From Bacteroidales bacterium (GTDB lineage Bacteria > Bacteroidota > Bacteroidia > Bacteroidales > UBA1715): a DNA stretch of 64,000 nt. The translations under genes and the position numbers were made by a program. This document shows, piece by piece, positions 7,651 through 60,875 of the stretch (positions are counted from its first letter, which is position 1; the number at the start of each line of letters is the position of its first letter). The notes under the pieces were generated by a model that was given only the letters and a program-made list of their open reading frames with translations, searched no databases and was not told the DNA's origin. Location of the stretch: the NCBI GenBank assembly GCA_045599365.1, contig JAZRVS010000032.1, forward strand, positions 236-64,235, given 5' to 3'.

Positions 7651-7666
7651 ATTATTTCCTTAATAT

Positions 7667-8428
7667 TTACTTTGAAAATGCTATTGGATTTGCAACATTT
7701 TTGTAACTAATTAAATCGCATTTAAGAGAACCAATAAGCATATCAAGTTCTATTCGAATAGGTATTTTATTTTCATCGTTGGTAACGTAGAGTGTCATAT
7801 CATCTTCATCGTCAAAAATGCGACCGACTTCGCATATTGGCATAAATTTCATTACTTTGAATTTGCCTGCTTTTGTTTTGATAGTTGTATTGCCTTTATA
7901 AACAATATACATAGGGTATACATCACCGCCAAAATATGTTATAAATTCAATTGTATCGCCTATATGGCAATTACCAAATTGATAACTGCGAGCATTGTAA
8001 AATGCAGAAACAATATCGGCAATATTTTTAGGAACTTTTTTCTCTCCTTTTTTAGAACTGATTACTACATCACGAGTTCTATCAAATGTTGTTAGTTCGT
8101 AGTCGTAGTAATCTCCTTCGTGGACATCGCGTACTGCCTTATATGGTAGGCCGTTATTTTTATCGTACCAAGTTTTGTAACGGTCAGCGAGAGGACAAAA
8201 AACTTTTGCGATGCCAGTTGTTTCTATGTAGGCTTCACCATAGTAAACATTTTTACCTTCATCGTTAATTTCTTTTACAGATAAAGTTGCAGTTCCGCCA
8301 TCAACTATTCCGTAATACACTAAATATTTGAGTTCTTCGCCAGCTTTGTATGCTTTGTTTTGTGCGAAAGATGAAAGAGCCATAAGTAGGCTTGCTCCAC
8401 AAATTGCTATTCTTTGTAATGTTTTCAT
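7667..8428 (-). CDS. DUF3108-like secreted protein
   Basis: Signal peptide MKTLQRIAICGASLLMALSSFAQ followed by a YLVYYGIVDGGTATL-type beta-rich sequence. Start moved to the internal ATG at 8428. Confidence 0.55.
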   Translation of the reverse strand: MKTLQRIAICGASLLMALSSFAQNKAYKAGEELKYLVYYGIVDGGTATLSVKEINDEGKNVYYGEAYIETTGIAKVFCPLADRYKTWYDKNNGLPYKAVRDVHEGDYYDYELTTFDRTRDVVISSKKGEKKVPKNIADIVSAFYNARSYQFGNCHIGDTIEFITYFGGDVYPMYIVYKGNTTIKTKAGKFKVMKFMPICEVGRIFDDEDDMTLYVTNDENKIPIRIELDMLIGSLKCDLISYKNVANPIAFSK

Positions 8429-8477
8429 AGTCGTAAGTTTCTTTAAAAATTCCAAATATTGTGCCAAAGCTCAACTA

Positions 8478-26300: not shown

Positions 26301-28116
26301 CGTAGTTGCTTTGATAACGTTTGATATCATCAAATGTTACGTTGATAATTAAACTATCGCTTGCGCATAATTCATTAGCAAAATCAATACTTACATCGGG
26401 CGTTTTACCCACACTTATTGAGTCTTTTTCCTTAATGATATTTGAAACAACACAGCCTGTATAGGTTTGTAGCGTAATGCGGTAGGCATATACACCTTCT
26501 TTGTCGTATGTGTGAGAATGGGTTAGATTTCCTGATTTTGCTTGGGTTGAAAAATTATCAATTTCGTCGTGAGTTCCATCTTCGTAATAATCCCAAGTGA
26601 TTTTTGCAATAGAGTCTTTATCTGTCTTGTAGGAGTAGTTTGCAGAGAGAGAAACTTCTAATGGTACACAACCACTGCGAGGCGATGCGTGTGTTGATAA
26701 TCTTGGTAATGTAACTTCAATGTTGTTGTTTAGTAAAGTGTCAGCTGTACAATAATTTGGGCTGATTGCATAAACATGTGTGGAGTAAAAACCTTCTAAA
26801 TCAAACTCTTTTGAGAAAGATGCACCTTCATACATTGTCATATCGCTGATTCCCCAATAAAATTTAGTGTTGGGGACATTACTCGTCGCTGAAAAAGGAG
26901 ATGTGATGGGAATAGAGCAGTAAAATGCTTCAGTTGGAGAAGCGATAATTTGAAGAGGTTCTTCAATAGATACTGTTTCGATAACGTCTTTTTGACAAGT
27001 CCCATTACTAACGTGTAACTTTATTTTATACGTACCAGCTTCGGTAATTTCAACTTTGAGTTCTTTGGTTTCAGATTCCACTGTCCCGTCATTCAAGAAA
27101 TCCCATTCCCAAGAGTTGTTTTTGGAAGAACTTGCGTCAAAAAAAGTAATTGTTCCTGGACAATATTTAGTTTTTGTTCCTGATGTTGAAATATATGGCT
27201 TTTTTGTATTCAAATCTTTTTTTATTTCTATTGCATTGATGGTTACGGCAGGAAATTCGTCTAAAATGCTTATTTCTGGTTGGTAGTCAATCAATTGAAT
27301 GCTGCGAGCAGAAGAGTTTTCGCATTCTGTTTTACTTATAGCTGATAGTGTCGGGTAATAACTACCAAATCCGTTGTACGTATGGCTTGGAGCATTTTCT
27401 CCGTCATAATCAGTATCGTCACCAAAATTCCAATGAAACGATACAATATTTTCGTCTTCAGTTTGATTTGTAAATGTTACGGTAAGTTGAGGTTCGCAAA
27501 CGCGAGTTTTGTTGACGGAAAAAGAAACAGCAGGGTAGTCATCGTAGGTTTTTACGGAAATGGATTTTCGTTCTCTATTGGAACAATTGTGAGCGTCGGT
27601 AATAGAAAGGAATATATCAAATTCGTCAGCAAATCCGAAAGTATGTAGAGGTGGTTTTTCTGTTAAATAACTCGTTCCATCCGATAAAATCCAAGTATAA
27701 GAGACAATGGTGGTATCAGAAATTATACTATCAATTGAAAATTGAAATGGTTTGTTTTCGCATGTAAATTCCTTGTCGGATTTAATTGTTACATCGGGAT
27801 CATTGTAAACTGTAATGTAATTTTCTTTTGTTATTGTTTGTATTACTTTATTACCCTCTTTTACTCGCATAGAGATAGAGTATTTCCCTGGGGTAATATA
27901 TGTTTTTTGTATGCTATCTTTTTGCACAAAATATTTTTCTTGTTCAACACTCCATTCGTAAGTATAATTATCAATTATAGATTCATCAGTTGTATTTTTT
28001 AGAAATATTTTGAGGGGGGAACAACCACTTGTTGTGTCAGCAACAAAATCAAATCCTTGCGCAAAGGAGTTGAAAACACATAGTATGCAGACTATAAAAG
28101 CAAGGAATCGATTCAT
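23314..28116 (-). CDS. 1600-aa PKD-repeat surface protein with T9SS type-B (gliding-motility-associated) C-terminal sorting domain
   Basis: A signal peptide and many PKD-like W-x-FGDG repeats (WDFGNGTTSEG, RWEFGDGIIE, YWEFGDGETKE, LWDLGNGRTS). The C-terminus PEAFTPNDDGINDIAFVRGWGI...FNRWGQIVFES matches the type-B CTD pattern. Confidence 0.8.
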   Translation of the reverse strand: MNRFLAFIVCILCVFNSFAQGFDFVADTTSGCSPLKIFLKNTTDESIIDNYTYEWSVEQEKYFVQKDSIQKTYITPGKYSISMRVKEGNKVIQTITKENYITVYNDPDVTIKSDKEFTCENKPFQFSIDSIISDTTIVSYTWILSDGTSYLTEKPPLHTFGFADEFDIFLSITDAHNCSNRERKSISVKTYDDYPAVSFSVNKTRVCEPQLTVTFTNQTEDENIVSFHWNFGDDTDYDGENAPSHTYNGFGSYYPTLSAISKTECENSSARSIQLIDYQPEISILDEFPAVTINAIEIKKDLNTKKPYISTSGTKTKYCPGTITFFDASSSKNNSWEWDFLNDGTVESETKELKVEITEAGTYKIKLHVSNGTCQKDVIETVSIEEPLQIIASPTEAFYCSIPITSPFSATSNVPNTKFYWGISDMTMYEGASFSKEFDLEGFYSTHVYAISPNYCTADTLLNNNIEVTLPRLSTHASPRSGCVPLEVSLSANYSYKTDKDSIAKITWDYYEDGTHDEIDNFSTQAKSGNLTHSHTYDKEGVYAYRITLQTYTGCVVSNIIKEKDSISVGKTPDVSIDFANELCASDSLIINVTFDDIKRYQSNYDTLTMVFTQYEPWPLAPNQLPTNIYPTIDQQIPVKETFSMKFTDTIGFHLASYTISDNGCSTTIDLNDGVTINGPMTFLTVSPTDCEKPYLYQYSFAKNYNAQTWEWFIQKVGDNSWTQIAENNDTLKIDFSNYGGRGQYFIKVTSHNPESGCDMSDSILTTVTDIVADFELKTYEPCLGDIAEFDVDPITMGQDIVSWEWIYDWNGKKDSLLFAKAEQQKAGYTIDRYDYYPNARQYIFDTTNITSVTVKVTDINGCTDLISKPVTVFEAHADFEADVVSDCLPFISNFTDKSTSEHSITNRTWDFGNGTTSEGNETSIQTEYNTKGNKTVSLSIIDDHGCKDTTTIRDYIKPILPNSQFHIKNEKVCLGHEAEFINDVHAYGYENSLSRYRWEFGDGIIEESTGNLPDTTKHIYTQEQKGKYEIKLLTYCTSPEGNECVDSSTNSIDIKDVGAQIKIKDSDLCKEPGQKFIVYLDNTIYNTNTKSFSWWKIDGGDSIYVSNKRTFQVVTFDNFGDQSLWLNTKSDYYGCEDTTISIPIHVPGYEASIIADKDAACIHEDVTFSLFDTLNLYRYNCYWEFGDGETKEMNTLNTTHQYTALAINDDNTYNVQFFVDAPGCKTRDISVDVKVFPVIAMFTRGLEDLDTAGCAPFSVQLYNTSVAGPEASYLWDLGNGRTSTEKNPTISISNINEAIPISLSVTSNICNDTIRKNIATYPVANISIDMDSSICYGETITATATGDFSSIQWQPAKLFSNSKNPNTNITIPHSQYIYIDSKNKYNCSHRDSVFVYVQQKPYYYGAPDSLLLFYNNEGNSQLASQKTNNLIAGQTYNLNVKKIQGVNYLWSPMTYLSCSDCESPDVDLSCIQDECLNFPDYLDYQISMSDSLGCFSNDTTIHFNIIFDSKIALPEAFTPNDDGINDIAFVRGWGIKEFLEVKIFNRWGQIVFESDDMSIGWDGTFHNEPQAMDTYAYTIKAKNLKDEEIFVKGYITLLR

Positions 28117-28213: not shown

Positions 28214-30778
28214 TTATATCCAACGAACGTAAGAGAAATCTTGACGATATGGAAGATTTTTGTTAGAAGGATACATTCGAATACCATAGTTAAATATACC
28301 AGAACGATTTGGTGTTGTTGCTAATGTGTAAACAGCCAAATTACCTTCCATTGCGGAGAATGTAAATGGATGGCATTTAACAATTTCGCGTTCTTCAGCC
28401 TCATTTTGTTCTGTTAAAATGAATTCAAAATTGATATCTTCTGGTTTCAAGCCTTTAAGGTCAACTTTAATAGTTCCGTTGTATGGCTCACCAAGTTTAA
28501 AAGGTTCGTTTGATTTGTCAATTTCAACAGATTCAACGTAGATTTGATCCCAAACTTCTGCAACTTTTTGTTTCCAACTAACTAATTCGTCAACAAGTTT
28601 ATAGTTGTCTTTTTTCAAAATTGCAGCACGTTCTCCCAATTTGTTATAGAAATGTTCTTTGTAGTCATCAATCATACGTTTTGTTGTGAATTCAGGAGCG
28701 ATTTCAGCAACGCATTTTTTGAAATATTGAATCCATGCATGAGGAACATCATCAACGCCACGTTCGTAGAACAATGGTACAATTTCGTTTTCCAAGATAG
28801 TGTAAATCATTTCACTATCAAGTTTGTTTTGCATATCTTGATTTTGATATGTACGTTTTTCAGGCAATGCCCAACCAGCACCTTCACGATAGCCTTCGCA
28901 CCACCAACCATCAAGTACGCTGAAGTTCATGGCACCATTCATTACAGCCTTCATACCTGATGTACCCGATGCTTCTAATGGTCGAGTTGGCGTATTCATC
29001 CAAATATCAACACCTTGTACTAACTGTTTGGCAAGATTCATATCGTAGTTTTCCAAGAAGACTATTTTACCCAAGAATTCAGGTAATTTGGAAATACGTA
29101 CAATTTCTTTAATAATATCTTGTCCTGGCTTATCTGCAGGGTGAGCTTTTCCTGCAAATACGAATTGTACTGGGTAGTCTGGATTGTTAACGATTTTGCT
29201 CAAACGTTCTAAGTTGCTAAACAACAAATAAGCACGTTTGTATGTGGCAAAACGGCGAGCAAAACCGATAGTCAATACATTTTTGTTTAATGTTTGGGTT
29301 ACGCGAACAATCTTCTTTGGATCTTCAAATTTGTCTGTCCATGATTTACGAAGAGCTTCTTTTGCGTATGTGATTAACTTTTCACGTTGAGCTTGACGAA
29401 TTTTCCAAATCTTTTCATCTGCAACACTATAGATTTTGTTCCAATATGATGCATCTGATTTATTTTCTAAAAATTCTTCTCCAAATGTTTCCTTGTATAA
29501 TTTTTGCCAAATTTTTGCAGTCCATGTTCCGTAGTGAACACCATTGGTAACATATCCGATAGGTGATTCATCAACTGTATAACCTGGCCATAAGTTTTTG
29601 AACATTTTTTGTGAAACAAGTCCGTGCAAACGGCTTACGCCATTGATGCCACACGATGTACAAATAGCAAAGTGACTCATAGAGAAGAATTCACCATTAT
29701 TATCTGGGTACATTCTACCAAGGTTCATAAATTCATTCCAATTTAACCCAAGACGTTCTGGGAATTGACCAAGATATGTCATCATCAATCCTTCTGGGAA
29801 AGAATCGTGTCCTGCTGGAACTGGAGTGTGAGTTGTGTACAACGAAGATGCACGAACAATTTCCAATGCTTTAGGGAAAGAACAATTTTCGTGTTTAATC
29901 AACGTACGAAGACGTTCCAAGTTGATAAATGCTGCGTGACCTTCATTACAATGGAACAAATCGCATTTTTCGCCAACAGCTTCCAATAAGCGTACACCAC
30001 CAATACCAAGCAACATTTCTTGTTTTAGACGATTTTCGTTATCACCGCCATACAATGCGTGAGTACAACCTTTATCGTCATCACGGTTTTCAGAAATATC
30101 AGTATCCATCAAATACAATTTGATTCGACCAACTTTCACCAACCAAATTTGTGCGTGCATAAGACGCCCTGGCATACCAACTTGAATCATCACTCGGTTT
30201 CCATTTGCGTCAACAACAGGAGAAATAGGTAATTCTGATTGATTTTGAGGATTATATTCTGCAATTTGGTCTCCTTCTAACGATAATGTTTGTTTGAAAT
30301 AACCATATTTATATAAGAAACCAACCGCAACCATATTTGTGTTAGTATCACTGGCTTCTTTCAAATAATCTCCAGCTAAAATACCAAGACCACCAGAGAA
30401 TATTTTTAATGAATCATCAAGACCATATTCCATACTAAAGTATGCAATACGAGGTGTTTTTTCGTCTGGTTGAACAGACATATAGTCATTGTATTTTTTC
30501 AATACAGAATTGTAACGATCAATAAAGTCTTGATCTTTTTCCAATTGACTCAATCGTTCAGCGCTAATACCTTTTAATACTGCGATTGGATTTTGTGTTT
30601 TTGCCCAAAGTTTTTCGTCTATTTCTTGGAACAATTCCATTGCTTCGTAGTTCCATGTCCACCAAAGGTTATTTGCTAATACACTCAAATTTTGCAAATT
30701 CTTTGGAAATGTTGACTGTACGATCACACTTCTCCATTGTGGATCGTTATGTCTGTTTTGATTTAAATTCGCTGCCAT
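28214..30778 (-). CDS. glgP: alpha-glucan phosphorylase (GT35)
   Basis: 854 aa. SMEYGL...GGLGILAGD and EASGTSGMKAVMNG (pyridoxal-phosphate lysine region) are typical of the alpha-glucan phosphorylase family. Confidence 0.9.
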   Translation of the reverse strand: MAANLNQNRHNDPQWRSVIVQSTFPKNLQNLSVLANNLWWTWNYEAMELFQEIDEKLWAKTQNPIAVLKGISAERLSQLEKDQDFIDRYNSVLKKYNDYMSVQPDEKTPRIAYFSMEYGLDDSLKIFSGGLGILAGDYLKEASDTNTNMVAVGFLYKYGYFKQTLSLEGDQIAEYNPQNQSELPISPVVDANGNRVMIQVGMPGRLMHAQIWLVKVGRIKLYLMDTDISENRDDDKGCTHALYGGDNENRLKQEMLLGIGGVRLLEAVGEKCDLFHCNEGHAAFINLERLRTLIKHENCSFPKALEIVRASSLYTTHTPVPAGHDSFPEGLMMTYLGQFPERLGLNWNEFMNLGRMYPDNNGEFFSMSHFAICTSCGINGVSRLHGLVSQKMFKNLWPGYTVDESPIGYVTNGVHYGTWTAKIWQKLYKETFGEEFLENKSDASYWNKIYSVADEKIWKIRQAQREKLITYAKEALRKSWTDKFEDPKKIVRVTQTLNKNVLTIGFARRFATYKRAYLLFSNLERLSKIVNNPDYPVQFVFAGKAHPADKPGQDIIKEIVRISKLPEFLGKIVFLENYDMNLAKQLVQGVDIWMNTPTRPLEASGTSGMKAVMNGAMNFSVLDGWWCEGYREGAGWALPEKRTYQNQDMQNKLDSEMIYTILENEIVPLFYERGVDDVPHAWIQYFKKCVAEIAPEFTTKRMIDDYKEHFYNKLGERAAILKKDNYKLVDELVSWKQKVAEVWDQIYVESVEIDKSNEPFKLGEPYNGTIKVDLKGLKPEDINFEFILTEQNEAEEREIVKCHPFTFSAMEGNLAVYTLATTPNRSGIFNYGIRMYPSNKNLPYRQDFSYVRWI

Positions 30779-33579: not shown

Positions 33580-35529
33580 TTATTTTTGTTCTTCTGTTGT
33601 AAAATTTTCAATCAATTTACAAATTCGTAATGCTGCGCCAACCGACCACGCTTGAGAAATTGCGCCACGAGGCGTATAAGGAGGATTTCCATCAAACATT
33701 TCTCCGATTGTTCCCAATCCATATTCTTGTACCAAGTTCTCTAAATCGGCATAGATTCGTTTTATTTCAGATACACCAGAACGACCATGCAATTTTAAAT
33801 ATGCTTCAGCATACGGAGCTAAAAGCCACATTAAAACACCTCCGTTGTGGTATGCGATATCACGTTCTTCAATAGTACCTGTTATGGTCCCTTTGTAATC
33901 TCCACTTTTAGGTGATAAAGTTCTAATTCCACAGGGTGTAAGCAATTCTCGTCTCACGTGTTCAAGTACAGAATGACGTTTCTCATCATCAAGAGCAGAA
34001 AATGGCAATGAAGCCCCAAATATTTGACTTGGACGCATAGAAAAGTCTTTGTATCCATTTACACAAAAGTCTGCTAAATAACCTCGCTCTTCATCCCAAA
34101 ATGTTTCAACAAACGATTTTTCAATTTTTGCAGGAATATCTTTCCATTTATCATGGAATGACTTCTTTGTTATTAATTCTAATGCAAAGCAGATGGCATT
34201 ATACCATAAAGCGTTAACTTCAACAACATATCCCCAGCGTTTTACAACTGGAATACCATTGATTTTTGCGTCAACCCAAGTAAGTGCTTTATGTTCATTT
34301 GGCAAAAACAACAAGCCATTGTCATGCATAACCACATTGCCATTTTTTCCTGACATGTATGTATCAAGAATTTCTTCTACTTTCTTTTGATACAATTTGC
34401 GTGTTTGAGCAACGTCTTTTGTATTCCAATTGTATTGTTGTACAGAACGTATGAACCACAATGCGGTATCAATTGACTCTGTATTGGTGTGTTCTATGTT
34501 TCCTTTATTTTTGTAAATGTATCCATCAATATCAGGAGCCATTGTGTCAAGTACTGCACGACAAGTGTCCCAGTCGCCTTGAGCAAGCGTTAGTCCTGGT
34601 AATGAAACCAAACTGTCTCGTCCCCACAAACCTGTCCATGGAAAACTTGCAATCACTTCACACCCTTTAGGAGAACGATACATAAACTGACGAGCAGCAT
34701 GACGTAAACATTCTTCAAAATTGTTTTGAGAATCTCTTCCTTTGGTTTCTTTTTCAAATAGTGATTTTAACAAAGATGATTTGATTGCTTGTAATCCTGC
34801 AGAAAAGACTACTGAATCTCCTTCCTTCAACGACACTTCAAAGTATCCAGGAGTAAATAAATCTTCTTTACAATCATATCCACGTTCGCTTTCTCTGTCA
34901 TAGGTAAAATCTCTATACCAATCAGGAGCAGTGATAAATTCATTTTTCTTTGAAAGTTGCATATTCAAAGTCGGAAATTTCTCGTATAAACAACTTGCGA
35001 TACCATTTTCTATTACAGAATGACGTGTATTTGCAGATAAATTCGCATGAGTCATTTCATGAACTTTGCGGAATGCTAAGAATGGCCGTAATTGTAATGT
35101 TGCATTCTTTTGTGATGAACTTACAACAGAATAGCGAATCAAAAATCGTTCGTCATTGTCAACAAGAACCATCTCTTTTTTCAAAACTAAACCACCAACA
35201 CGAAAGACAATCGTTAAAATAGGTGAGTTTTTATATGATTCAATGTATTTGTATCCTGAAGGGAAAAATTCATTGTTGAATTTATGCGTAGCTAAATGAA
35301 ATGGAGTTTTTTCGAGAATAACTGTTTCGTCTAACGAGGATAAAAGCACATAGTTATCTCCATCAATTTCTTTGATAGGACTCACTAATAGTCCATGATA
35401 TTTACGAGTGTTACAACCAAGAATAGTTGAGTTCGCATACGATCCAGCTTTGTTCGTACGAAGGAATTCGCGTTGCAAAGAACTCTGTAAATCTGTAACT
35501 TGTTGACGAGAAAATTCTAAGTATTCCAT
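33580..35529 (-). CDS. glycogen debranching enzyme (amylo-alpha-1,6-glucosidase family)
   Basis: 649 aa. The N-terminus REFLRTNKAGSYANSTILGCNTRKYHGLL and a C-terminal (alpha/alpha)6-type region are typical of bacterial GDE-family proteins. Confidence 0.8.
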   Translation of the reverse strand: MEYLEFSRQQVTDLQSSLQREFLRTNKAGSYANSTILGCNTRKYHGLLVSPIKEIDGDNYVLLSSLDETVILEKTPFHLATHKFNNEFFPSGYKYIESYKNSPILTIVFRVGGLVLKKEMVLVDNDERFLIRYSVVSSSQKNATLQLRPFLAFRKVHEMTHANLSANTRHSVIENGIASCLYEKFPTLNMQLSKKNEFITAPDWYRDFTYDRESERGYDCKEDLFTPGYFEVSLKEGDSVVFSAGLQAIKSSLLKSLFEKETKGRDSQNNFEECLRHAARQFMYRSPKGCEVIASFPWTGLWGRDSLVSLPGLTLAQGDWDTCRAVLDTMAPDIDGYIYKNKGNIEHTNTESIDTALWFIRSVQQYNWNTKDVAQTRKLYQKKVEEILDTYMSGKNGNVVMHDNGLLFLPNEHKALTWVDAKINGIPVVKRWGYVVEVNALWYNAICFALELITKKSFHDKWKDIPAKIEKSFVETFWDEERGYLADFCVNGYKDFSMRPSQIFGASLPFSALDDEKRHSVLEHVRRELLTPCGIRTLSPKSGDYKGTITGTIEERDIAYHNGGVLMWLLAPYAEAYLKLHGRSGVSEIKRIYADLENLVQEYGLGTIGEMFDGNPPYTPRGAISQAWSVGAALRICKLIENFTTEEQK

Positions 35530-50864: not shown

Positions 50865-51479
50865 ATGTGGTATGCAGGTTGTCTTAAAAGACTGATGGAT
50901 TTCACTATTGCTGCCGTTGCATTGGCTGCCTTATCGTGGCTGATGGTCGTGGTGGCTCTGCTGTTGCATTTTGCAAATCATGGTGCAGGCATCCTGTTCA
51001 TTCAGGATCGCCCAGGGAAAGACGGAAAGATTTTCCAGCTCTTCAAGTTCAAGTCCATGACCGATGAGTGCGACAGCCACGGCAACCTGCTTCCGAACAT
51101 GGAACGGCTGACCCCCATCGGGAAGTTTATCCGCAGCACAAGCATTGACGAACTGCCTCAGCTACTAAATGTCTTGAGAGGAGATATGGCACTGGTTGGC
51201 CCTCGCCCTTTGCTGGCAAGATATCTGCCCTACTACACGGAACGTGAACGCTTGCGCCATAGCGTCAGACCAGGCATCACAGGATGGGCTCAGGTGCATG
51301 GACGCAACGACCTGCCTTGGAATGAGCGGCTGGAGTTGGACGCTTGGTATGCTGAACACGTGTCGTTCGAACTTGATTGCAGGATTGCATGGATGACCAT
51401 AATAAAAGTAATACGTCACAAGGGGACGAGTATCGAGAAACTTGTTCCATTGGACGTGGAAAGAAAAGAAAAAACATGA
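50865..51479 (+). CDS. small monotopic phosphoglycosyl transferase (bacterial sugar transferase, PglC/WbaP C-domain type)
   Basis: A re-entrant helix, then FIQDRPGKDGKIFQLFKFKSM and IDELPQLLNVLRGDMALVGPRP. Confidence 0.9.
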   Translation: MWYAGCLKRLMDFTIAAVALAALSWLMVVVALLLHFANHGAGILFIQDRPGKDGKIFQLFKFKSMTDECDSHGNLLPNMERLTPIGKFIRSTSIDELPQLLNVLRGDMALVGPRPLLARYLPYYTERERLRHSVRPGITGWAQVHGRNDLPWNERLELDAWYAEHVSFELDCRIAWMTIIKVIRHKGTSIEKLVPLDVERKEKT

Positions 51480-52546
51480 AAATATTGATTACCGGCGCGT
51501 GTGCCGTTACCGCACGCACAATACTGAGAGGACTCAAGATGAGTCCTGAATTTGGGAATGCCGAGTTTATAGGTTGGGACATGTGCGGATTGTTGTATGG
51601 AGTGTACTCCAAGGCATTCGACAAGATGTACAAGGTGCCTGGGGTGAGCGACCCTATATACGAAGAGGTCGTCAGGAAGATACTTGCCGACGAACGTCCG
51701 GATGCCGCCATTATCGTGCCTGAAGTAGAGGTGCGATATTGGGCAAACCACGAGCTGGGTGTGCCTTGTCTGCTGCCTCCCGGCAAATTCGCCGATATTG
51801 CCGTTTGCAAGGACAAGCTGTTTGCCGCCCTTAGGGATACAGACCTCGTGCCAAGTCATTTCAATGCATCTGCCAGTGAAATCAAGTCGCTGGACTTCAA
51901 CAACACGCTGGGCTTCCCTGTCTGGATACGCGACGGAGCGGCCGGCACGGCTTCGGCACGTGGAGCGTTCAAAGCACATTCCAACGACGACCTTCGTGCC
52001 TGGGTGCAGGTGAACAACGGAATAGACATGTTCCAGCTGTCCGAATATCTGCCGGGAAAGATTTACGCCTGCGTGTGCCTCTACAAGAATGGTGTACTGA
52101 AGAAAGTGTGCCTCAGCCAGCGCATTGAATACATCATGTCCAAAGTGGCGGTATCCGGAATTACAGGCAATATATGCAAGGGCAAGCTCATCAACGACCG
52201 AAAAGTGGTTGACACGGCCATACGAACCATCGAGACACTTTGCGCTCAGACGGGGGAAGTTCCGAACGGCATCATTGATGTGGATATGCGTGACGATGTG
52301 AATGGCAATCCCAAGGTGACCGAAATCAACATGCGCTTCCTTTCGTTCAGTTCCGTGTTTGCTTCGGCAGGCTGGAACCTGTTCGAGGATCTTGTGAAAC
52401 TGACGCTGAACCGCGACGACGAGGTGTCGCCCCAGCTAGAGAAGCAATTCCCCGAAAGCAACTGGATTCTGCGCGATGTAGATGGTGAGCCCGTCTATGT
52501 GGAGAATCCTGTGGAGCTGAAGATGGGCGAGTGCTTCCGCAAATAA
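51476..52546 (+). CDS. ATP-grasp-fold enzyme
   Basis: MKILITGA..., a central glycine-rich region, and the late motif KVTEINMRF (E-x-N-x-R of ATP-grasp). The start ATG overlaps the upstream stop as ATGA. Confidence 0.65.
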   Translation: MKILITGACAVTARTILRGLKMSPEFGNAEFIGWDMCGLLYGVYSKAFDKMYKVPGVSDPIYEEVVRKILADERPDAAIIVPEVEVRYWANHELGVPCLLPPGKFADIAVCKDKLFAALRDTDLVPSHFNASASEIKSLDFNNTLGFPVWIRDGAAGTASARGAFKAHSNDDLRAWVQVNNGIDMFQLSEYLPGKIYACVCLYKNGVLKKVCLSQRIEYIMSKVAVSGITGNICKGKLINDRKVVDTAIRTIETLCAQTGEVPNGIIDVDMRDDVNGNPKVTEINMRFLSFSSVFASAGWNLFEDLVKLTLNRDDEVSPQLEKQFPESNWILRDVDGEPVYVENPVELKMGECFRK

Positions 52547-52560
52547 ACGATGTCAAGGAA

Positions 52561-53661
52561 ATGACCAGGATTGTTTTCATATTGAATACGCTCACCCAGC
52601 CACTCTGTTTCAAGCGCATCGAGGAGTTCCGGCGCAGGGGCTACCAGACTGACGTGTATGGCTTCAGTTCCGATTCGCAGGATACAGTCATCCGAAGCAG
52701 TGACATAGTGCAAGTCATAGGAACTTGTGTGCATGGGGAAGGCAACTATTTCCGCCGGTTGCTGACGATGGTGAGAGCCATCCGCAAATTGAACCGCAGG
52801 TATAGGAATGAGGACGTAACATTCTATTATTTTCAAATGGACACCTGCATTGCAGCACGATTGGTAAGCAGAAAGCCATATATATACGAGAACTACGATT
52901 TGGTGTACGGAGCGTTCCCCAATCCTTTGAAATGGATGTTCCGTCACATTGACAGGTGGCTGACCATTCATTCCGTAGCCACCGTAATGACCTCTCCTGG
53001 TTTTCAAGAATATCTATTTCGTGGGAAACACCAAGACAACGTATATATCATTCCCAACAAACTCAATCCGCGTGTATTGGGGTACCCTTACCATCCTACC
53101 GACCTCGACATTGCACATATTCGCTTTGCGTTTGTAGGTCATATACGTTCGGCTGGTTCCTTCAGATTTGCCAAAGTGGTGGCAGAAAGGTTTCCCCAGC
53201 ACTCTTTCCACTTATACGGCACAATAGGCAAGGGTAACGACTTTGCTGGACTGGCGGACCGCCATCCGAACGTGGTGATGCATGGCTCTTTCCAAAATCC
53301 AGACGACTTGCCGGGAATCTATGAACAGGTGGACGTGCTTGTCCCCTTGCTTAGCGAGAACAACACGAAGAATGTCAACAACATCTATTTGGAACCAAAC
53401 AAATTGTATGAATCGGTCTATTTCAGGACTCCCATCGTAATGACAGACGGCACCTATATGGCCCGGAGGGTGAAGGAACTGAACTGCGGGTTCGTGTTGC
53501 CTGACGTATCAGAAGAGGGAATAACCCGTTTCATCAACTCCCTTACCGAGCAATCGCTGAAAGAGATTGTGACACATATTTCAACCATTCCTCAAACCGA
53601 TGCCGTGGATGATTATGCCGGTTTCTTTGAATTTCTGAACAGCAAACTAACCAAATTATAA
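52561..53661 (+). CDS. GT-B-type glycosyltransferase
   Basis: 366 aa. MTRIVFILNT... N-domain, FAFVGHI... start of the C-domain and an EPNKLYES donor-binding-like motif. Confidence 0.55.
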   Translation: MTRIVFILNTLTQPLCFKRIEEFRRRGYQTDVYGFSSDSQDTVIRSSDIVQVIGTCVHGEGNYFRRLLTMVRAIRKLNRRYRNEDVTFYYFQMDTCIAARLVSRKPYIYENYDLVYGAFPNPLKWMFRHIDRWLTIHSVATVMTSPGFQEYLFRGKHQDNVYIIPNKLNPRVLGYPYHPTDLDIAHIRFAFVGHIRSAGSFRFAKVVAERFPQHSFHLYGTIGKGNDFAGLADRHPNVVMHGSFQNPDDLPGIYEQVDVLVPLLSENNTKNVNNIYLEPNKLYESVYFRTPIVMTDGTYMARRVKELNCGFVLPDVSEEGITRFINSLTEQSLKEIVTHISTIPQTDAVDDYAGFFEFLNSKLTKL

Positions 53662-53671
53662 ATTGCAAACA

Positions 53672-54877
53672 ATGAAATATGTAATAGACATACAGGATCC
53701 ATGGCCAGAACCATTCTGCATAAAAATCAGGAACAGGTTGTTTCGGAAATTGCTGTACCCTCCTCTGGCCAAATATGCCGATAGAGTCTATCGCAAGGCC
53801 GATGGAGTGGTGGCGGTATCGGAAACTTACCTGAAGTGGGCTGCACAGTTCAACCATAGCGCGGACTTATGGCTGTCTGTGTTTCTGGGGAAGGACTCGG
53901 CATTGTTTGACAAATACAGGAAGGAAAATGTCTTTCAACGGAACGACAATGAGCTGTGGATTGCGTATGCCGGCTCACTCAGTTACAGTTACGACCTTCC
54001 GACTGTGATAGATGCGCTTGCCTTGCTCTCTCAGCGTCAGGGAGCCGACTTACCACCTGTGCGCCTTGTTGTTATGGGAGACGGACAACTGCGTTCACAA
54101 TATGAGGCATACGCCAAGGCACACGGCATTGCCGCCGAGTTTACCGGCATGTTGCCATATCCCCAAATGGTAGGCAGGCTCTGTGCCTGCGACATCTGTG
54201 TGAATCCCATCATTATGAGCAACCGTGGCAGCATTATCAATAAGGTAAGCGATTATGCGCTGGCAGGTTTGCCTGTAGTCAATTCGCAGAATTGCGACGA
54301 ATACCGCCAGATGATAGCGCGTTATGGATGCGGCATAAACTGCGAATGTGAAAACAGCGCGGAAATGGCTGACGCCATCGGAAAGTTGGCATCGGACGCA
54401 AATCTCCGCCGTACTATAGGTGAGAACTCCAGAAGAATGGGTGAAGAGTGTTTCGACCGCCGGAGCATCTATCCGCATATTGTGGATGCCCTGGCAGGGT
54501 ATGGTGCAAAAAAGGTGATGATTGTAGCCAATTTCCACCCCACCCTCAACGGTTCCACCGAAGGAAGGTTCACCTATCTGGCACAGATGCTTCATGAGCA
54601 GGGCTTTGATGTGGAGCTGGTGGTGTCGGACTTTGAACACCGCACGAGAAAACGCCGTGAATCGCTGTCCAATCCTTATCCGTTCAAACTCACCTATCTT
54701 CACGAACCTGGTTACAGCAACATTGTATCTGTACGGAGAATGTGGAGCCATTATGTGTGGGGATGCAATGTCGGGAAATACCTGAAATCGTGCAAGGACA
54801 AGCCTGATGTGGTCTATGTGTCCGTGCCATCGCTAACGGCAGCAAGGAAGGTGTCATTTATATGTAAAAACAAGTAA
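53672..54877 (+). CDS. GT4 (WbuB-like) glycosyltransferase with apparently circularly permuted sequence order
   Basis: Aa 1 to ~280 begin at the mid-N-domain motif DIQDPWPE and run through a full C-domain. Aa ~282-402 (VMIVANFHPTLNGSTEGRFTYLAQMLHEQGFDVELV...PDVVYVSVPSLTAA) look like the first ~125 aa of a canonical GT4. Confidence 0.55.
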   Translation: MKYVIDIQDPWPEPFCIKIRNRLFRKLLYPPLAKYADRVYRKADGVVAVSETYLKWAAQFNHSADLWLSVFLGKDSALFDKYRKENVFQRNDNELWIAYAGSLSYSYDLPTVIDALALLSQRQGADLPPVRLVVMGDGQLRSQYEAYAKAHGIAAEFTGMLPYPQMVGRLCACDICVNPIIMSNRGSIINKVSDYALAGLPVVNSQNCDEYRQMIARYGCGINCECENSAEMADAIGKLASDANLRRTIGENSRRMGEECFDRRSIYPHIVDALAGYGAKKVMIVANFHPTLNGSTEGRFTYLAQMLHEQGFDVELVVSDFEHRTRKRRESLSNPYPFKLTYLHEPGYSNIVSVRRMWSHYVWGCNVGKYLKSCKDKPDVVYVSVPSLTAARKVSFICKNK

Positions 54878-54882
54878 GCATC

Positions 54883-55485
54883 ATGGATAACAAAGGAAAA
54901 AAGAAATTGAGCCTTTCCTTCAGGTTGCTGCGCCGGATGGGGTTCAACTATTCCGAAGATGAGTATGGGGATGTCTCGCTGTGGAAGGTTGTGAAACGTG
55001 TCTGTACCACCTACCGTAACATGTTTCTGCAAGGCCCAATTATGAACGGCTGGCTGTTGTCGCCGTTACAGCCCAGACGTCTCCGTGCATGGGGAATGAG
55101 GAAGATGGGCTGCCATGTTGGCAAGGGCTGTTTTATAGGCAACCATGTGCGTCTTGACTCCGGCCATGCCGATATGATAACGTTGGAGGACAATGTGACA
55201 ATAACATCTGGAGTCCACCTGCTCTGCCATCAGCGTGATATTTCGGATTATTGTGCGGGTGATGACTATATGAAACTTGGCTATGTCGTCAAACCCATTG
55301 TCCTGAAGAAGGGTTGCTCAGTGGGAATAGAGAGTGTGGTGATGCCAGGTGTCACCATAGGCGAAGGGGCAATTGTAGGTGCAGGTTCACTGGTAACGAA
55401 AGATATTCCGGCATGGACGGTGGCTATGGGACGACCCGCCAAGGTTGTCCGCCAGATACCGGAACGTAAAGGTTTAATGGTTTAA
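54883..55485 (+). CDS. hexapeptide-repeat (LbH) acetyltransferase
   Basis: Left-handed beta-helix repeats and C-terminal VGAGSLVTKDIPAWTVAMGRPAKVV. Confidence 0.8.
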   Translation: MDNKGKKKLSLSFRLLRRMGFNYSEDEYGDVSLWKVVKRVCTTYRNMFLQGPIMNGWLLSPLQPRRLRAWGMRKMGCHVGKGCFIGNHVRLDSGHADMITLEDNVTITSGVHLLCHQRDISDYCAGDDYMKLGYVVKPIVLKKGCSVGIESVVMPGVTIGEGAIVGAGSLVTKDIPAWTVAMGRPAKVVRQIPERKGLMV

Positions 55486-55502
55486 AGGTTATAGGTTTAA
55501 TG
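55468..55502 (+). repeat. 8-bp tandem array A (AAGGTTTA-type, about 4 units)
   Basis: aaaggtttaatggtttaaaggttataggtttaatg. It contains the last 5 codons and the TAA of the acetyltransferase, and the ATG of the next gene. Confidence 0.85.
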
Positions 55503-56363
55503 AATATATTGACATTCGATATAGAGGAGTGGTATATGAAAGTTGTCAAAATGGGATGGCGCGACAAACGTGCCGAGTACGACCGTTATTTCCATCGCAT
55601 CCTCGACAAATTGGATGAACGAAGCCTGAAGGCTACCTTCTTCTGTTTGGGTGAGATGGGGAGGCTTTTCCCTGAAACGGTTCTTGAGATTGACCGTCGC
55701 GGACATGAGGTTGGCTGTCATTCCAATGTTCACCTTCCGCTCAACACCCTGACAAAGGAAGAATGTCTTGACGATACGAGAAAGGCCCTGGATTCGCTGG
55801 AACAATGTCTTGGGAAGAAGATAATCAGTTACCGTGCGCCGGCATTTTCTGTTGGAGAAGAGAACAGGTGGATGTTTTCCGTCCTTACGGAGTGTGGCAT
55901 AGAGCGTGACTCGTCTGTATATCCTGCCCGTAGGGATTATGGCGGCTTTCCGGATTTCGGAACACAAAGGCCTGCTTTGATAAAGGTAGGCAACAGTTTC
56001 ATCAAGGAATTTCCCATACCGCTGGCAATGGTCGCCGGAAAGCAGTTTGCCTATTCTGGGGGCGGTTATTTCAGGGTACTCCCATACGGATTTATCCGCA
56101 GGCAGATGATGAAGTCGGACTACACTATGACTTATTTCCATCTGGACGACCTGCTTCCGGAATCGAAAGGGGTGATGAGTGCCGAAGAGTACCGTATGCA
56201 CTTCAACAAACCCGGAACACTCATCGAACGCTACAGACGTTGTTTCAGGGCCAACGTCGGGAAGAAAGGTGCCATGGACAAACTGATGCGCCTGCTTGAC
56301 GAAATGGATTTCATCGGACTGTCTCAGGCCGATGGGCAGATAAAACATTGGGATGTGATATGA
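55500..56363 (+). CDS. polysaccharide deacetylase family protein (DUF3473-type)
   Basis: MNILTFDIEEWY start, ATFFCLGE and CHSNVH motifs. Confidence 0.8.
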   Translation: MNILTFDIEEWYMKVVKMGWRDKRAEYDRYFHRILDKLDERSLKATFFCLGEMGRLFPETVLEIDRRGHEVGCHSNVHLPLNTLTKEECLDDTRKALDSLEQCLGKKIISYRAPAFSVGEENRWMFSVLTECGIERDSSVYPARRDYGGFPDFGTQRPALIKVGNSFIKEFPIPLAMVAGKQFAYSGGGYFRVLPYGFIRRQMMKSDYTMTYFHLDDLLPESKGVMSAEEYRMHFNKPGTLIERYRRCFRANVGKKGAMDKLMRLLDEMDFIGLSQADGQIKHWDVI

Positions 56364-56396
56364 ACCAAGCATCCAATAGCAGAATAAAAAGCCATA

Positions 56397-56825
56397 ATGA
56401 AGAATATGACTGTAAATGACTGTAAAATCATAGAGCTGCCAAAGATTGTTGACCCAAGAGGGAATCTTTCTTTTGTAGAGACCTTCAGGCATGTTCCATT
56501 TGAAATCAAGCGGACATACTGGATTTATGACGTTCCCGGAGGAGAAAACCGTGGAGGTCACGCTTTTCGCAATAATCAGGAATTTGTGATTGCTCTCTCG
56601 GGCGCCTTTGACGTGGTTGTGGATGATGGCAAGGAAAAGAATACTTTCACTCTCAACCGTTCTTACTATGGACTATATATCCCTGCCGGTCTTTGGCGTA
56701 CAATGGAGAATTTCTCCACCAATTCACTGGCTCTGGAGTTCGGATCGATAAAGTATGACCGTGAGTCTGATTACATAGAAGAGTACGAACAATTCCTAAA
56801 ACTGAAGAGCAATGGCGAAATATAA
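56397..56825 (+). CDS. WxcM/FdtA-like sugar 3,4-ketoisomerase (cupin)
   Basis: IELPKIVDPRGNLSFVE...IKRTYWIYDVPGGENRGGHAFR. Confidence 0.8.
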   Translation: MKNMTVNDCKIIELPKIVDPRGNLSFVETFRHVPFEIKRTYWIYDVPGGENRGGHAFRNNQEFVIALSGAFDVVVDDGKEKNTFTLNRSYYGLYIPAGLWRTMENFSTNSLALEFGSIKYDRESDYIEEYEQFLKLKSNGEI

Positions 56826-57231
56826 TGTATTTGATTGCTCGATGGTAGAGCTTGACAAACATCATAGTGAACGCAAGGGTAATCTCACTGTGGTGGAGAA
56901 TGGCAACAGCATTCCGTTTGACGTGAAGAGGGTTTATTACCTTTATGATGTCCCTGGAGGAGAGAGCCGTGGTTCGCACGCTCATCGTGAACTTGAGCAG
57001 CTGATAATTGCGGCATCAGGCTCGTTCAAAGTCACCTTGGATGACGGCAAGTGCAAGCGAACGTTTTTCCTGAACCGTCCCTATCAGGGCTTATATGTCA
57101 GGCTTGGAATATGGCGTGATTTGGAAGACTTCTCTTCCGGCTCAGTGTGTATGGTACTGGCCAGTGATGTATATCAGGCAGATGATTACATTCGTGATTA
57201 TGGTGAATTCCTTCGCTTTCGCGAGGGATAA
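56812..57231 (+). CDS. second WxcM/FdtA-like cupin paralogue
   Basis: VELDKHHSERKGNLTVVE...VKRVYYLYDVPGGESRGSHAHR. It overlaps the previous gene by 14 nt. Confidence 0.8.
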   Translation: MAKYNVFDCSMVELDKHHSERKGNLTVVENGNSIPFDVKRVYYLYDVPGGESRGSHAHRELEQLIIAASGSFKVTLDDGKCKRTFFLNRPYQGLYVRLGIWRDLEDFSSGSVCMVLASDVYQADDYIRDYGEFLRFREG

Positions 57232-57264
57232 GGGTTTAAAAGTTTAATGTTTAAAAGTTTAAAG
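57231..57264 (+). repeat. 8-bp tandem array B (left flank of the four-helix-bundle gene)
   Basis: agggtttaaaagtttaatgtttaaaagtttaaag. It begins within the fdtA-like TAA stop and ends at the ATG at 57265. Confidence 0.85.
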
Positions 57265-57645
57265 ATGGGGAAAGATAAGAAGTTTGCATTTGAAAATCTT
57301 GAAGCTTATAAGGTTGCTCGTGTCCTTGTAAGGGACGTTTATCGTCTTCAAGACAAATTTCCGAAAGAAGAACGATACGCTCTTGGTGATCAGATTAGAC
57401 GCTCTTCTACATCTATTACAAGCAATATAGCCGAAGGAGCGGGTCGCAATTCTTATAAAGAAAAGATACATTTTGTAGAGATTGCTTTCGGAAGTATGAC
57501 TGAATGTTTTAGCCAACTTCAAAATGCCCAAGACTTAGGCTATATTCGTGATGAAGAAGTAGAAGCCTTACGCCCTCAATTCAATCATGTGGCGGCTTTA
57601 CTTTCGCTTCTGAAGAGGAGCTATGAAGAAAAGCTAAACTCATAA
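57265..57645 (+). CDS. four-helix-bundle protein (23S rRNA intervening-sequence protein / Avd-like family)
   Basis: FENLEAYKVARVLVRDVYRL...FPKEERYALGDQIRRSSTSITSNIAEGAGRNSYKEKIHFVEIAFGSMTECFSQL is a close match to the family signature. Confidence 0.85.
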   Translation: MGKDKKFAFENLEAYKVARVLVRDVYRLQDKFPKEERYALGDQIRRSSTSITSNIAEGAGRNSYKEKIHFVEIAFGSMTECFSQLQNAQDLGYIRDEEVEALRPQFNHVAALLSLLKRSYEEKLNS

Positions 57646-57708: not shown

Positions 57709-58167
57709 ATGATACACCCTTTAGCCGACTGTAAATGTCCGAATATACCGGAATCCACCAATGTGTGGCAGTTCTGTGTGATTTTCCCCAAGGCTACCAT
57801 AGGGGAAAATTGTAACATCTGCTCCCATTGTCTCATCGAGAATAAAGCTGTTATTGGAAACAATTGCGTTATCAAGTGTGGCGTACAGATTTGGGACGGA
57901 ATCACGCTTGAAGACAATGTAATGATAGGAGCCAATGTCTCCTTTACCAACGATATGTACCCAAGGGCTCACAATAAAGATTGGAAGATGTTACCGACTC
58001 GTGTTTGCAAAGGCGCAAGCATAGGTGCTGGTGCAACGATACTTCCAGGTCTAACCATTGGCGAAGGGGCTATGGTTGGTGCCGGATCTGTTGTAACCAA
58101 AGACGTCCCTGCCGGCGAAATGTGGGCTGGTAATCCTGCAAGGTTCATGAAGAAAGTTGAAAAGTAA
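57709..58167 (+). CDS. hexapeptide N-acetyltransferase, FdtC/QdtC (WxcM C-terminal)-like
   Basis: LbH repeats ([44 protein letters not shown]), in context with fdtA-like and aminotransferase genes. Confidence 0.75.
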
Positions 58168-58171
58168 AGAG

Positions 58172-59323
58172 ATGATACCTTTCCTTTCATTAAAAGACGT
58201 TACCGCTCTTCACGGTGCGGAAATCAATGAGGTCGTAACTCGTGTCGTGAACAACGGTTGGTATCTTCAAGGAGTTGAAAACGAGAAGTTCGAGAAAAAC
58301 TATGCCGACTACATCGGCACAAAATACGCCATCGGTTGTGCAAACGGTCTGGATGCCCTCATCTGGATATTCCGTGCGTACATCGAGATGGGCGTGATGA
58401 AGCCAGGTGATGAGGTGATAGTTCCTGCAAACACCTACATAGCAACCGTTCTTGCTATCACGGAGAACGGTCTTGTACCTGTGCTTTGCGAGCCGAAGCT
58501 TAATACTCTTGAGATTGATGATGACCTGATAGAAGACCTCATCACTCCGAAGACAAAGGCCATTGCGGTTGTGCATCTCTATGGACGCATTGCCATTACT
58601 CCTAAGATTCTGGAACTTTGCAAGAAGTACAATCTGAAACTTGTGGAGGACAATGCTCAGGCTCACGGATGCGTATATGCTCCTACCGGTCAAAGGACTG
58701 GAAGCATTGGTCACGCTGCTGGTCATAGCTTCTATCCCGGGAAGAACCTTGGTGCTCTTGGTGATGGTGGTGCTGTTACCACCAATGATCCCGAACTGGC
58801 AGCAGCCGTTCGTGCATTGGCGAACTATGGCTCTTACAGGAAATACGTGTTCAAATACACTGGCCGAAACAGCCGTTTGGACGAAATCCAGGCAGCAGTT
58901 CTTGATGTCAAGCTCAAGTATCTGGAAGAGGACAATGCAAAGCGCAAGGCAGTGGCTCACTACTACTATGAGCATATCAACAATCCTTTGATTACCCTTC
59001 CTGACCATCTGCCTGATGAGCAGTGTGCTTATCATCTCTTCCCAATTATCGTTCATGACCCTTCCCTTTCGGGAGGGGACGGGGGTAGGCTTCGTGACCG
59101 TTTGCACGACTATCTGGCAGATAATGGTGTGGGTACTGTGATTCATTATCCTATTGCTCCTCATAAGCAGGAGTGTTATGCGAAAGAGTCGTGGAATGTT
59201 CCTCAACTGTCTTTGCCAATAACGGAGAAGATTGCCGTTGAGGAGTTGAGTCTGCCTATCGGGCCGGCAATTACGATAGAGGAAGTGAAGGAAGTCGTCA
59301 ATTTACTTAATCTTTTCGTATAA
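58172..59323 (+). CDS. DegT/DnrJ/EryC1/StrS-family sugar aminotransferase (FdtB/QdtB-like)
   Basis: MIPFLSLKD...GWYLQG...HLYGR...[15 protein letters not shown] (PLP-lysine region). Confidence 0.9.
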
Positions 59324-59333
59324 GATAGCAGTA

Positions 59334-60875
59334 ATGACCGATCAATTATCCAGTTCGAAACGTTTGGCGAAGAACACCCTGATGTTATACTTCAGGATGA
59401 TCCTCACAACAGTTGTAAGTCTCTATACCAGCAGAGTTGTTCTTCAGACACTCGGAGTATCAGACTATGGCCTATACAGTGTGGTCGGTGGTTTTGTCTC
59501 TATGCAGGGGGTACTGAACTCACTTTTTATCAGTTCCACCCAACGATATATGGCCTTTGCATTAGGCAAAGGAGAGCAAAGTCAAGTAGAACGGGTGTTT
59601 TCAAATTCTGTGGTTATTCAACTATGTATTGCAGGCATTGTATTTATTGTTGCAGAGACTTTTGGTTTATGGTTCGTCAACAACAAGTTGGTAATTGAAC
59701 CGACAAGAATGGTGGCGGCAAACTGGGTATATCAGGCTGCCGTTCTCTCAATGGTCATCAATATCATTAGCATACCATACAATTCCTGTATCATTGCCCA
59801 TGAGCATATGGATATTTATGCCTATGTGAGTATTATTGATGTGCTAATGCGTTTGGGTATCGTATTTTTGATTCAGATAATTCCCTTCGACAAACTCATA
59901 TCGTATTCGATACTTTTAGTGATGGTTGCGGTAACAATTCGTCTCTGCTACACCATATATAGCAAAAGGAAATTTGAGGAATGCCGGACAAAGAACCATT
60001 TCAGGAAGTTTGACAAACCATTGTTCAAAGAAATGTTCGCTTTTGCAGGATGGAGTTTTCTCGGCTCCATGGGATTCTCTTTTAAGGACCAGTTCTCCAA
60101 TATGATGCAGAATATGTTCTTTGGAACAACTGTCAATGCAGCACGTGGTCTGGCTATGAGGGTGAGTTCTGTAGTGACATCTTTCTCAAACAATTTTATG
60201 ATGGCTTTGAATCCTCAAATTACAAAGCAATACGCATCAGGAGATAAAACACAATATCAGAAATTGGTTTTCACCGGGTCAAGACTATCCTTCTATCTGC
60301 TTTCGATTATCGCAATTCCGGTTTTGACCAACTTAGACTATCTATTAGGGTTATGGTTAGTGGAAGTTCCACAATATACTGACATCTTCATCAATATTTC
60401 GCTTTTTTCAGCCTTGGTTTACTCGTTGTCGCAAGGAACAACGACTGCAATATTTGCGACAGGAAAGATAAAGGCATTTGAGATAGGTATTTCAATAATT
60501 CTTCTTGCTGAATTGCCAATCGGTTATGTGTTGCTAAAATCAGGCTATCCACCTTATGCTGCAATGCTTCCTGCATTTTTGACTCAACCTGCTGGACTTG
60601 TATACCGTTTTATCCTGCTAAAGAAGAATGAACCTTCATTCAGTTATAAGTACTATTTCATCAACATAGTTCTTCGGGCATTTATATTGTTCGCCATAGG
60701 ATATGCGGCTTCCAAATTTATTGCGGATTTGATGGGGCCAAGCATCTGGGGGTTGTTATGCAACGTTGCAATCAGTGTGATGCTATACGCGTCAATTCTC
60801 CTTATCGGTGGGATGGATAAAAACGAGAGGAAAATAATAATTGAGCTCGTAAGAACGAGAGTGGTAAGGGGGTAA
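59334..60875 (+). CDS. wzx: Wzx-type polysaccharide flippase (MOP superfamily)
   Basis: 513 aa, about 12-14 TM helices, N-terminus RLAKNTLMLYFRMILTTVVSLYTSRVVL. Confidence 0.8.
   Translation: MTDQLSSSKRLAKNTLMLYFRMILTTVVSLYTSRVVLQTLGVSDYGLYSVVGGFVSMQGVLNSLFISSTQRYMAFALGKGEQSQVERVFSNSVVIQLCIAGIVFIVAETFGLWFVNNKLVIEPTRMVAANWVYQAAVLSMVINIISIPYNSCIIAHEHMDIYAYVSIIDVLMRLGIVFLIQIIPFDKLISYSILLVMVAVTIRLCYTIYSKRKFEECRTKNHFRKFDKPLFKEMFAFAGWSFLGSMGFSFKDQFSNMMQNMFFGTTVNAARGLAMRVSSVVTSFSNNFMMALNPQITKQYASGDKTQYQKLVFTGSRLSFYLLSIIAIPVLTNLDYLLGLWLVEVPQYTDIFINISLFSALVYSLSQGTTTAIFATGKIKAFEIGISIILLAELPIGYVLLKSGYPPYAAMLPAFLTQPAGLVYRFILLKKNEPSFSYKYYFINIVLRAFILFAIGYAASKFIADLMGPSIWGLLCNVAISVMLYASILLIGGMDKNERKIIIELVRTRVVRG

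Follow-up and report, generated by a model that had tools for sequence, protein, structure and literature searches.

The open reading frame (ORF) at 53672-54877 on the forward strand of a 64,000-nucleotide stretch of contig JAZRVS010000032.1 from a Bacteroidales bacterium (hereafter, the window) is an exact circular permutation of a GT4 glycosyltransferase. It is a complete gene, running from an ATG at 53672 to a TAA ending at 54877, and its 401-aa product (MKYVIDIQDPWPEPF to SLTAARKVSFICKNK) has an identical protein on record as well as full-length permuted homologues. We hold with high confidence that it is a single polypeptide that folds as a normal two-lobed GT-B (GT4) glycosyltransferase with permuted connectivity; tandem duplication is its proposed origin. 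The chain would open at beta5 of the N-terminal Rossmann domain and complete that domain, next enter the donor-binding C-domain and return via the C-terminal helices; a 4-residue linker would then lead to beta1-alpha4, normally the protein's opening part, leaving the new termini in the alpha4/beta5 loop. As in canonical relatives, both sequence blocks would contribute invariant residues to the active site.

Two blocks cover the canonical model once

As a canonical reference we used a 399-position hidden Markov model (HMM) of 100 canonical-order homologues of about 400 aa, hundreds of which were returned by database search. Residues 1-275 of the window protein matched model positions 124-396 (370 bits, E 3e-114) and residues 280-400 matched positions 1-121 (159 bits, E 4e-50). 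The model was covered once with zero overlap, only positions 122-123 and 397-399 were unmatched, and four linker residues separated the blocks. BLASTP against the canonical protein P0005 gave the same picture, with query 2-274 aligned to 124-394 and query 283-399 to 4-119. Members of the canonical subfamily have the order N (1-121) then C (124-399), whereas the window protein has 124-396 first and 1-121 last. A circularly permuted homologue is one whose blocks are homologous to a reference in swapped order and cover it once (PMC3320104), and the window protein has this two-block arrangement. The initial annotation, made from the sequence without database searches, had reasoned that a permutation should show as a pair of collinear off-diagonal blocks that jointly span the family model a single time, with a C-terminal segment homologous to a GT4 N-terminus; HMM and BLASTP recovered both (the segment being ~120 aa), without overlap and without omitted parts of the fold.

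Domain profiles agree with this order. Pfam PF00534 (Glycos_transf_1) and PF13692 both matched at aa 85-255 above their cut-offs (56.3 bits against 26.4 and 52.6 bits against 27, respectively), identifying a Rossmann C-domain. The N-domain matches were split and just below threshold (PF13439, 27.8 against 28.5; PF13579, 18.8 against 29.7) because the chain is permuted: Glyco_transf_4 profile positions 9-81 fall at aa 301-386, and Glyco_trans_4_4 positions 115-144 fall at aa 30-59. The placement of these domains is consistent with the earlier description of GT4 pieces in permuted order, which was accurate at the level of sequence. The canonical GT-B chain order, with N-domain, C-domain and the C-terminal helix last, is not that of the window protein. 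The NCBIfam WcaI model NF007640 scored 38.6 bits against a cut-off of 276, and no named NCBIfam family threshold was reached; the DxxDLWPE and N-K-x-x-D-Y motifs resemble those of WbuB/WcaI-like GT4 enzymes, a resemblance only.

All parts of the protein are encoded on the forward strand. Residues 1-85 (53672..53926; model 124 to ~208) correspond to the second half of the N-terminal Rossmann domain (beta5-beta7 with helices, as placed by the AlphaFold2 elements) and the inter-domain helix, and they carry at aa 6-13 the motif DIQDPWPE, which canonical relatives have at 129-136. The C-terminal, nucleotide-sugar donor Rossmann domain follows at aa 85-255 (53924..54436), delimited by Glycos_transf_1 and by invariant columns that include N-K-x-x-D-Y (aa 190-195) and E-Y (aa 210-211). 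The C-terminal helices (aa 243-275, 54398..54496; predicted H243-261, H263-266 and H268-276), which in GT-B enzymes cross back onto the N-domain, end the first homology block at model position 396. By the HMM domain boundaries, the linker GYGA (aa 276-279, 54497..54508) connects the former C-terminus to the former N-terminus, and the Lys280 codon right after it takes the place of the ancestral start Met. At aa 280-401 (54509..54874; model 1-121) comes the relocated first half of the N-terminal Rossmann domain (beta1-alpha1-beta2-beta3-alpha-beta4-alpha4), with invariant residues R299, F321, H323, E345, Y348, R356 and P386. The cut site lies in the loop from the helix '...PSLTAA..KYCKKN' to the strand 'G.KFIIDVQDLWPE'.

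The start codon ATG lies 10 nt past the stop of the upstream gene; an alternative start, TTG at 53663, is possible, but homologues do not use it. At the start of the relocated block there is a run of six A (54509-54514), and a TGATGA in the neighbouring frame resembles a stop/start overlap. This resemblance looks coincidental, as Met283 falls on model position 4 rather than on the ancestral start. A separate polypeptide initiated internally at Met283 was considered and rejected, since Met283 is not conserved in other permuted lineages.

Predicted structure

An AlphaFold2 model of the window protein, computed from 47 aligned sequences, had a mean predicted local distance difference test (pLDDT) of 93.1 and a predicted template modelling score (pTM) of 0.90, with no low-confidence segment; the two 10-residue blocks spanning the linker (aa 271-290) averaged 97 and 90. 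The model of canonical P0005 was comparable (pLDDT 92.8, pTM 0.87). The secondary-structure list of the window model is a cyclic shift of the P0005 list: window E2-7 to H268-276 corresponds to canonical E124-129 to H388-396 (with E2-7, H13-17, H22-41, E45-48, H51-58, E66-69 and H76-85 corresponding to E124-129 to H197-206), and window E281-285, H299-309, E313-319, E339-343, H354-373, E380-385 and H388-400 correspond to canonical E2-6 to H108-121. The model is compact and confident, compatible with the closed N-domain that the initial annotation required of a permuted enzyme.

In Foldseek searches of the PDB, the best matches of both models were GT4 enzymes (PimA, WaaG, HepE, MshA, BshA and PglA; probability 1.00), and the predicted fold is two-lobed like these solved structures. 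For the canonical P0005 model, 404-436 columns were aligned (ranks 1-31) with a query TM-score of mostly 0.6-0.73; for the permuted model, the top-ranked alignments with good root-mean-square deviation had 255-300 columns and query TM-scores of 0.42-0.55. The alignments of the permuted model fall short by roughly the length of the relocated block (~120 residues), as would be expected if a sequential aligner loses it. A phmmer search of PDB chains with the window protein gave no match.

A conserved permuted family

The permuted architecture is found in at least 17 protein clusters (clustered at 90% identity) that are 43-94% identical to each other and derive from many independent assemblies. 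Identity to the window protein is 94% for P0001, 85% for P0002 and P0372, 50% for P0009 and 47% for P0007; further members are P0122, P0268-P0271, P0273, P0274, P0277, P0287, P0290, P0305 and P0325. All share a common cut site (model 120-124), starting within ~4 residues of position 124 and ending near 121-123, and in all the junction is in frame, with differing linker sequences. The P0290 sequence is identical on at least 24 contigs, and P0287 is encoded in a Bacteroidales metagenome-assembled genome (MAG), on a contig of 1.38 Mb. Two loci in assemblies from other samples, L003 and L004, are collinear with the window over 52559-56376 (90.8% DNA identity) and 52999-54947 (89% DNA identity), respectively, and the start, internal join and stop of the permuted gene recur in both.

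The permuted form is rare yet recurrent in gut metagenomes. A representative library (1.84 billion) yielded 36,868 family matches, most of them canonical, with one permuted protein among the best 150. A scan of species-representative genomes found no close relatives of the window protein; with P0287 and P0290 as queries, these genomes gave the MAG of P0287 itself (L005, permuted) and 57 other loci, all 57 canonical by HMM. A profile of 12 junction-spanning segments, used to seek further permuted or N-C-N(-C) proteins, returned only 12 fragments with <50% query coverage. Unpermuted relatives, for which a search had been suggested at the outset, exist and are far commoner than the permuted form.

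The ratio of non-synonymous to synonymous substitution rates (dN/dS, Nei-Gojobori) was 0.087 for window versus L003, 0.176 for window versus L004 and 0.234 for L003 versus L004 over the whole gene, and 0.017, 0.143 and 0.241 for the same pairs over the relocated block. Judged by these ratios, both blocks are under purifying selection. Among 264 canonical proteins, 40 columns are at least 93% conserved, nine of them in the relocated block. The window protein keeps 38 of these 40 invariant columns (K47R and N73I are changed, leaving seven of the nine in its relocated block), and the other permuted lineages keep 39-40.

Origin of the permutation

The anatomy of the junction fits an origin by duplication. 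The distance from the FDRR motif to the ANF motif of beta1 is 28 aa in the window protein and 28-32 residues across permuted proteins, and canonical P0005 has a 19-residue C-tail after FDRR and a 9-residue N-terminus up to ANF, which also sum to 28. Because this length equals native C-tail plus native N-terminus, the junction has the form expected when the end of a gene copy is read on into the copy that follows it; where the start Met once stood, different lineages have K, R, L or G. In the general model of 'permutation by duplication', tandem duplication is followed by in-frame fusion and loss of the outer pieces (PMC3320104). Here, the C-terminus of copy 1 would have been fused in frame to the N-terminus of copy 2, with the outer N and C pieces subsequently lost. 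We infer an origin by tandem duplication, fusion and truncation.

Several observations weigh against parts of this interpretation. N-C-N or N-C-N-C intermediates were not found, the longer relatives being N-C-C' proteins or GT4+GT2 fusions, and vestiges of the lost N- or C-blocks were not found in the translated 1.5-kb flanks of six permuted genes, which showed nothing beyond the permuted gene's own first residues. Closure of the N-domain is a prediction from pTM, pLDDT and the order of elements, and AlphaFold2 may favour Rossmann packing of a familiar kind. Three substitutions in the window lineage are unusual (L to P in DLWPE, K47R and N73I). Finally, in neighbour-joining (NJ) trees made after in-silico de-permuting, a clade of all permuted proteins was never recovered from either block or the full alignment (bootstrap 0/40 to 0/100). 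The scenario of tandem duplication and truncation offered by the initial annotation fits the junction anatomy but stays a proposal, as neither intermediates nor flanking vestiges were found. Shorter relatives end at assorted positions and not at the cut site.

The same trees resolve four permuted groups: 'core7' (P0007, P0273, P0274, P0277, P0290, P0305 and P0325; bootstrap 40/40), the P0122 group (40/40) and the window protein with P0009 (38/40), with P0287 standing alone. Each group lies as near to canonical proteins as it does to other permuted groups, and rare residues shared among permuted proteins are only marginally above random expectation. Forcing monophyly costs only +0.063 (standard deviation 0.036) of a tree length of 77 under constrained minimum evolution, and core7 with the P0122 group as one clade is not rejected by minimum evolution. 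That the cut site is identical favours a single origin, whereas the distance trees favour several; the conflict could be explained by rapid evolution, by a star-like radiation or by recombination with canonical paralogues. A recurrent origin of the permuted form is possible, although we lean against it. The compound proposal, that this is the first natural permuted GT-B family and that it arose repeatedly at the alpha4/beta5 loop, with groups interspersed among canonical proteins, is likewise tentative and on balance unlikely. If true, repeated origin would mean that the GT-B fold breaks preferentially, and evolvably, at that loop.

Alternative explanations

The initial annotation had offered, as its alternative, a fusion of two decayed gene remnants, that is, a pseudogene in which the 3' remnant of one decayed GT4 gene was joined by chance, and in frame, to the 5' remnant of the next. 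Two truncations would leave such an arrangement, and the run of six A at the junction, with the neighbouring-frame TGATGA, is like the stop/start overlap of tandem genes. However, at least 17 clusters, the most divergent at 43% identity, keep the in-frame order with different linkers, a spread (43-94%) that excludes copies of one recent sequence, and the pieces are complementary to within two residues, which is not expected of random truncations. With dN/dS of 0.02-0.24 in both blocks and 38-40 of 40 invariant residues kept, we regard a pseudogene as highly improbable. A technical origin, by mis-join, by collapse of a tandem repeat or by a homopolymer error fusing two ORFs, might be suspected in a metagenome-type contig of an uncultured Bacteroidales bacterium with such an A-run at the junction. 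Yet assemblies from other samples, made with other assemblers, are collinear over all three junctions at 89-91% identity, distant lineages with unrelated linkers share the architecture, and one permuted member lies on the 1.38-Mb MAG contig; an artefact is therefore almost inconceivable. A sequencing error at the A-run specifically was rejected, as L003 and L004 have the same in-frame junction.

An intact fold whose role has changed or been lost, as a non-catalytic scaffold or with a different acceptor or regulation, is a less remote alternative that we still consider quite unlikely. The C-terminal helix would be tethered at both ends and the N-domain chain broken at alpha4/beta5, which could alter domain closure; moreover, the window lineage has changes within the near-invariant DLWPE motif as well as in two invariant columns, and long branches lead to the group of the window protein and P0009. 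Against this, N-K-x-x-D-Y, E-Y and nearly all invariant residues are kept in every permuted lineage, which would be unexpected for a scaffold, and no second subfamily copy that could take over the step was seen in the examined loci, which were not exhaustively searched. A single, normally folded and permuted GT4 enzyme thus accounts best for the data.

Genomic context and putative function

The permuted gene lies in a polysaccharide locus. A radical-SAM gene precedes a gene for a small initiating sugar-phosphate transferase (Bac_transf, 50865..51479, forward strand; PF02397, 198.7 bits), which is followed by a gene without a Pfam match (51377-52546; its L003 counterpart, at 6914-7984, is likewise without one). 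Immediately upstream of the permuted gene is a separate, complete GT4-like glycosyltransferase in normal order (52531..53661, forward strand; Glyco_transf_4 at aa 31-176, Glyco_trans_1_4 at aa 214-338), and downstream are a hexapeptide acyltransferase (54883-55485) and a polysaccharide deacetylase with DUF3473 (55500-56363), both on the forward strand and identified by Pfam; all three are syntenic in L003. Further on, two overlapping tandem genes of ~140 aa (56397-56825 and 56812-57231) resemble, by eye, WxcM/FdtA-type sugar isomerases or cupins, and a small ORF (57247-57645) resembles, also by eye, a four-helix-bundle '23S rRNA IVP'-type protein. ORFs of 388 aa (58157-59323) and 513 aa (59334-60875) are a possible aminotransferase and flippase, by position only.

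All examined contexts of permuted genes are polysaccharide loci with Wzy or flippase genes, several with DegT or ATP-grasp genes. A Bac_transf gene lies one to three genes from the permuted glycosyltransferase in five of the seven contexts examined, one permuted member directly follows an UpxY/NusG-like gene, and the identifiable hosts are gut Bacteroidales. For the window itself, the threonyl-tRNA synthetase shares 93% and 91% identity with its counterparts in MAGs of uncultured gut Bacteroidales. The enzyme would transfer a sugar from a nucleotide sugar onto an intermediate, linked to undecaprenyl diphosphate, in the assembly of a capsule or O-antigen-like polysaccharide by a Wzy-dependent route, and it probably acts early, after the Bac_transf initiating transferase. 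Retained invariant residues and purifying selection are indirect evidence of catalytic activity, and the substrate is putative.

L003 has an extra ATPgrasp_TupA gene of ~0.9 kb (7993-8897) in the interval between the gene without a Pfam match and the upstream glycosyltransferase, absent at window 52555-52559, and its synteny with the window extends no further than 56376; in L004 the acyltransferase and deacetylase genes are missing from the collinear stretch, which passes from 54947 directly to 56310. Because of these changes the locus reads as a mosaic of gene modules. Two segments of ~80 bp at module borders, window 56295-56376 and 59327-59405, have second matches in L003 (13961-14042 and 13883-13961, ~90%) and may be recombination joints between polysaccharide-locus modules. 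Elsewhere in the window, a 1600-aa ORF on the reverse strand (23314-28116) lies within a glycogen- or glucan-metabolism block, with a phosphorylase-like gene (28214-30778) and a debranching enzyme (33580-35529) as neighbours.

Implications and comparison with known systems

GT-B ranks with the most abundant of enzyme folds, and GT4 with the largest families of glycosyltransferases. Catalysis by GT-B enzymes needs hinge motion between the Rossmann domains and a C-terminal helix that packs back across the N-domain. Nature here offers a conserved variant whose C-terminal helix continues into beta1 and whose chain is broken inside the N-domain, a ready-made experiment on the weight of chain connectivity for folding and domain closure. 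It also bears on where the fold tolerates new termini, as in fusions, sensors and split enzymes, and on how permutations arise in operon-packed bacterial genes. Domain annotation sees a C-terminal glycosyltransferase domain and a sub-threshold N-fragment, so permuted genes are easily mis-called as truncated genes or pseudogenes.

Among known systems, the closest to the window protein are the canonical-order members of its GT4 subfamily, with relatives in Bacteroidales and Firmicutes genomes (for example P0005, P0011 and the Butyricimonas paravirosa protein P0027, recorded as a 'glycosyltransferase family 4 protein'), which are 46-54% identical to it per block and have the same length, the same 40 invariant residues and the same predicted secondary-structure elements. 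The solved GT4 structures, PimA (2gej), WaaG (8b5s, 2iv7), HepE (4xsr), MshA (3c48), BshA (3mbo, 6n1x) and PglA (8dqd), share the GT-B fold with the window model, have normal chain order and are only 12-19% identical in sequence to the query models. PglA also uses an undecaprenyl-diphosphate-linked sugar.

Other rearrangements occur in the same subfamily. N-C-C' relatives of 550-600 aa (P0003, P0004, P0006, P0008, P0121 and P0280) show that genes of this subfamily can be duplicated internally and fused in frame; with the N-terminus in its usual place and an additional C-domain, they are not N-C-N intermediates. A second, diverged C-terminal Rossmann copy is also present in P0076, P0127 and P0128, and the P0280 cluster comprises 62 sequences from 22 contigs; it is unusual for a GT-B enzyme to have two domains of the donor type. 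In P0123, P0124, P0126, P0131 and P0160 (596-719 aa), the GT4 subfamily is fused, on either side, to another domain, several of which are GT2-like by eye.

A full-text literature search, whose coverage is incomplete and in which absence is not proof, returned no natural circular permutation of a GT-B or GT4 enzyme; what it did return dealt with GH70 in relation to GH13, with methyltransferases, with concanavalin A or with options of software. The GH70 glucansucrases are a natural circular permutation relative to GH13 (PMC11046441), and the usual explanations of such permutations are duplication followed by truncation, or fission followed by fusion (PMC3320104). The other natural permutations retain fold and catalytic residues while the sequence is cyclically shifted, as is predicted for the window protein, and they affect folds such as (beta/alpha)8 barrels, lectins, saposins and methyltransferases, not GT-B enzymes. 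Unlike these known cases, the window protein is cut inside one Rossmann domain of a two-domain enzyme.

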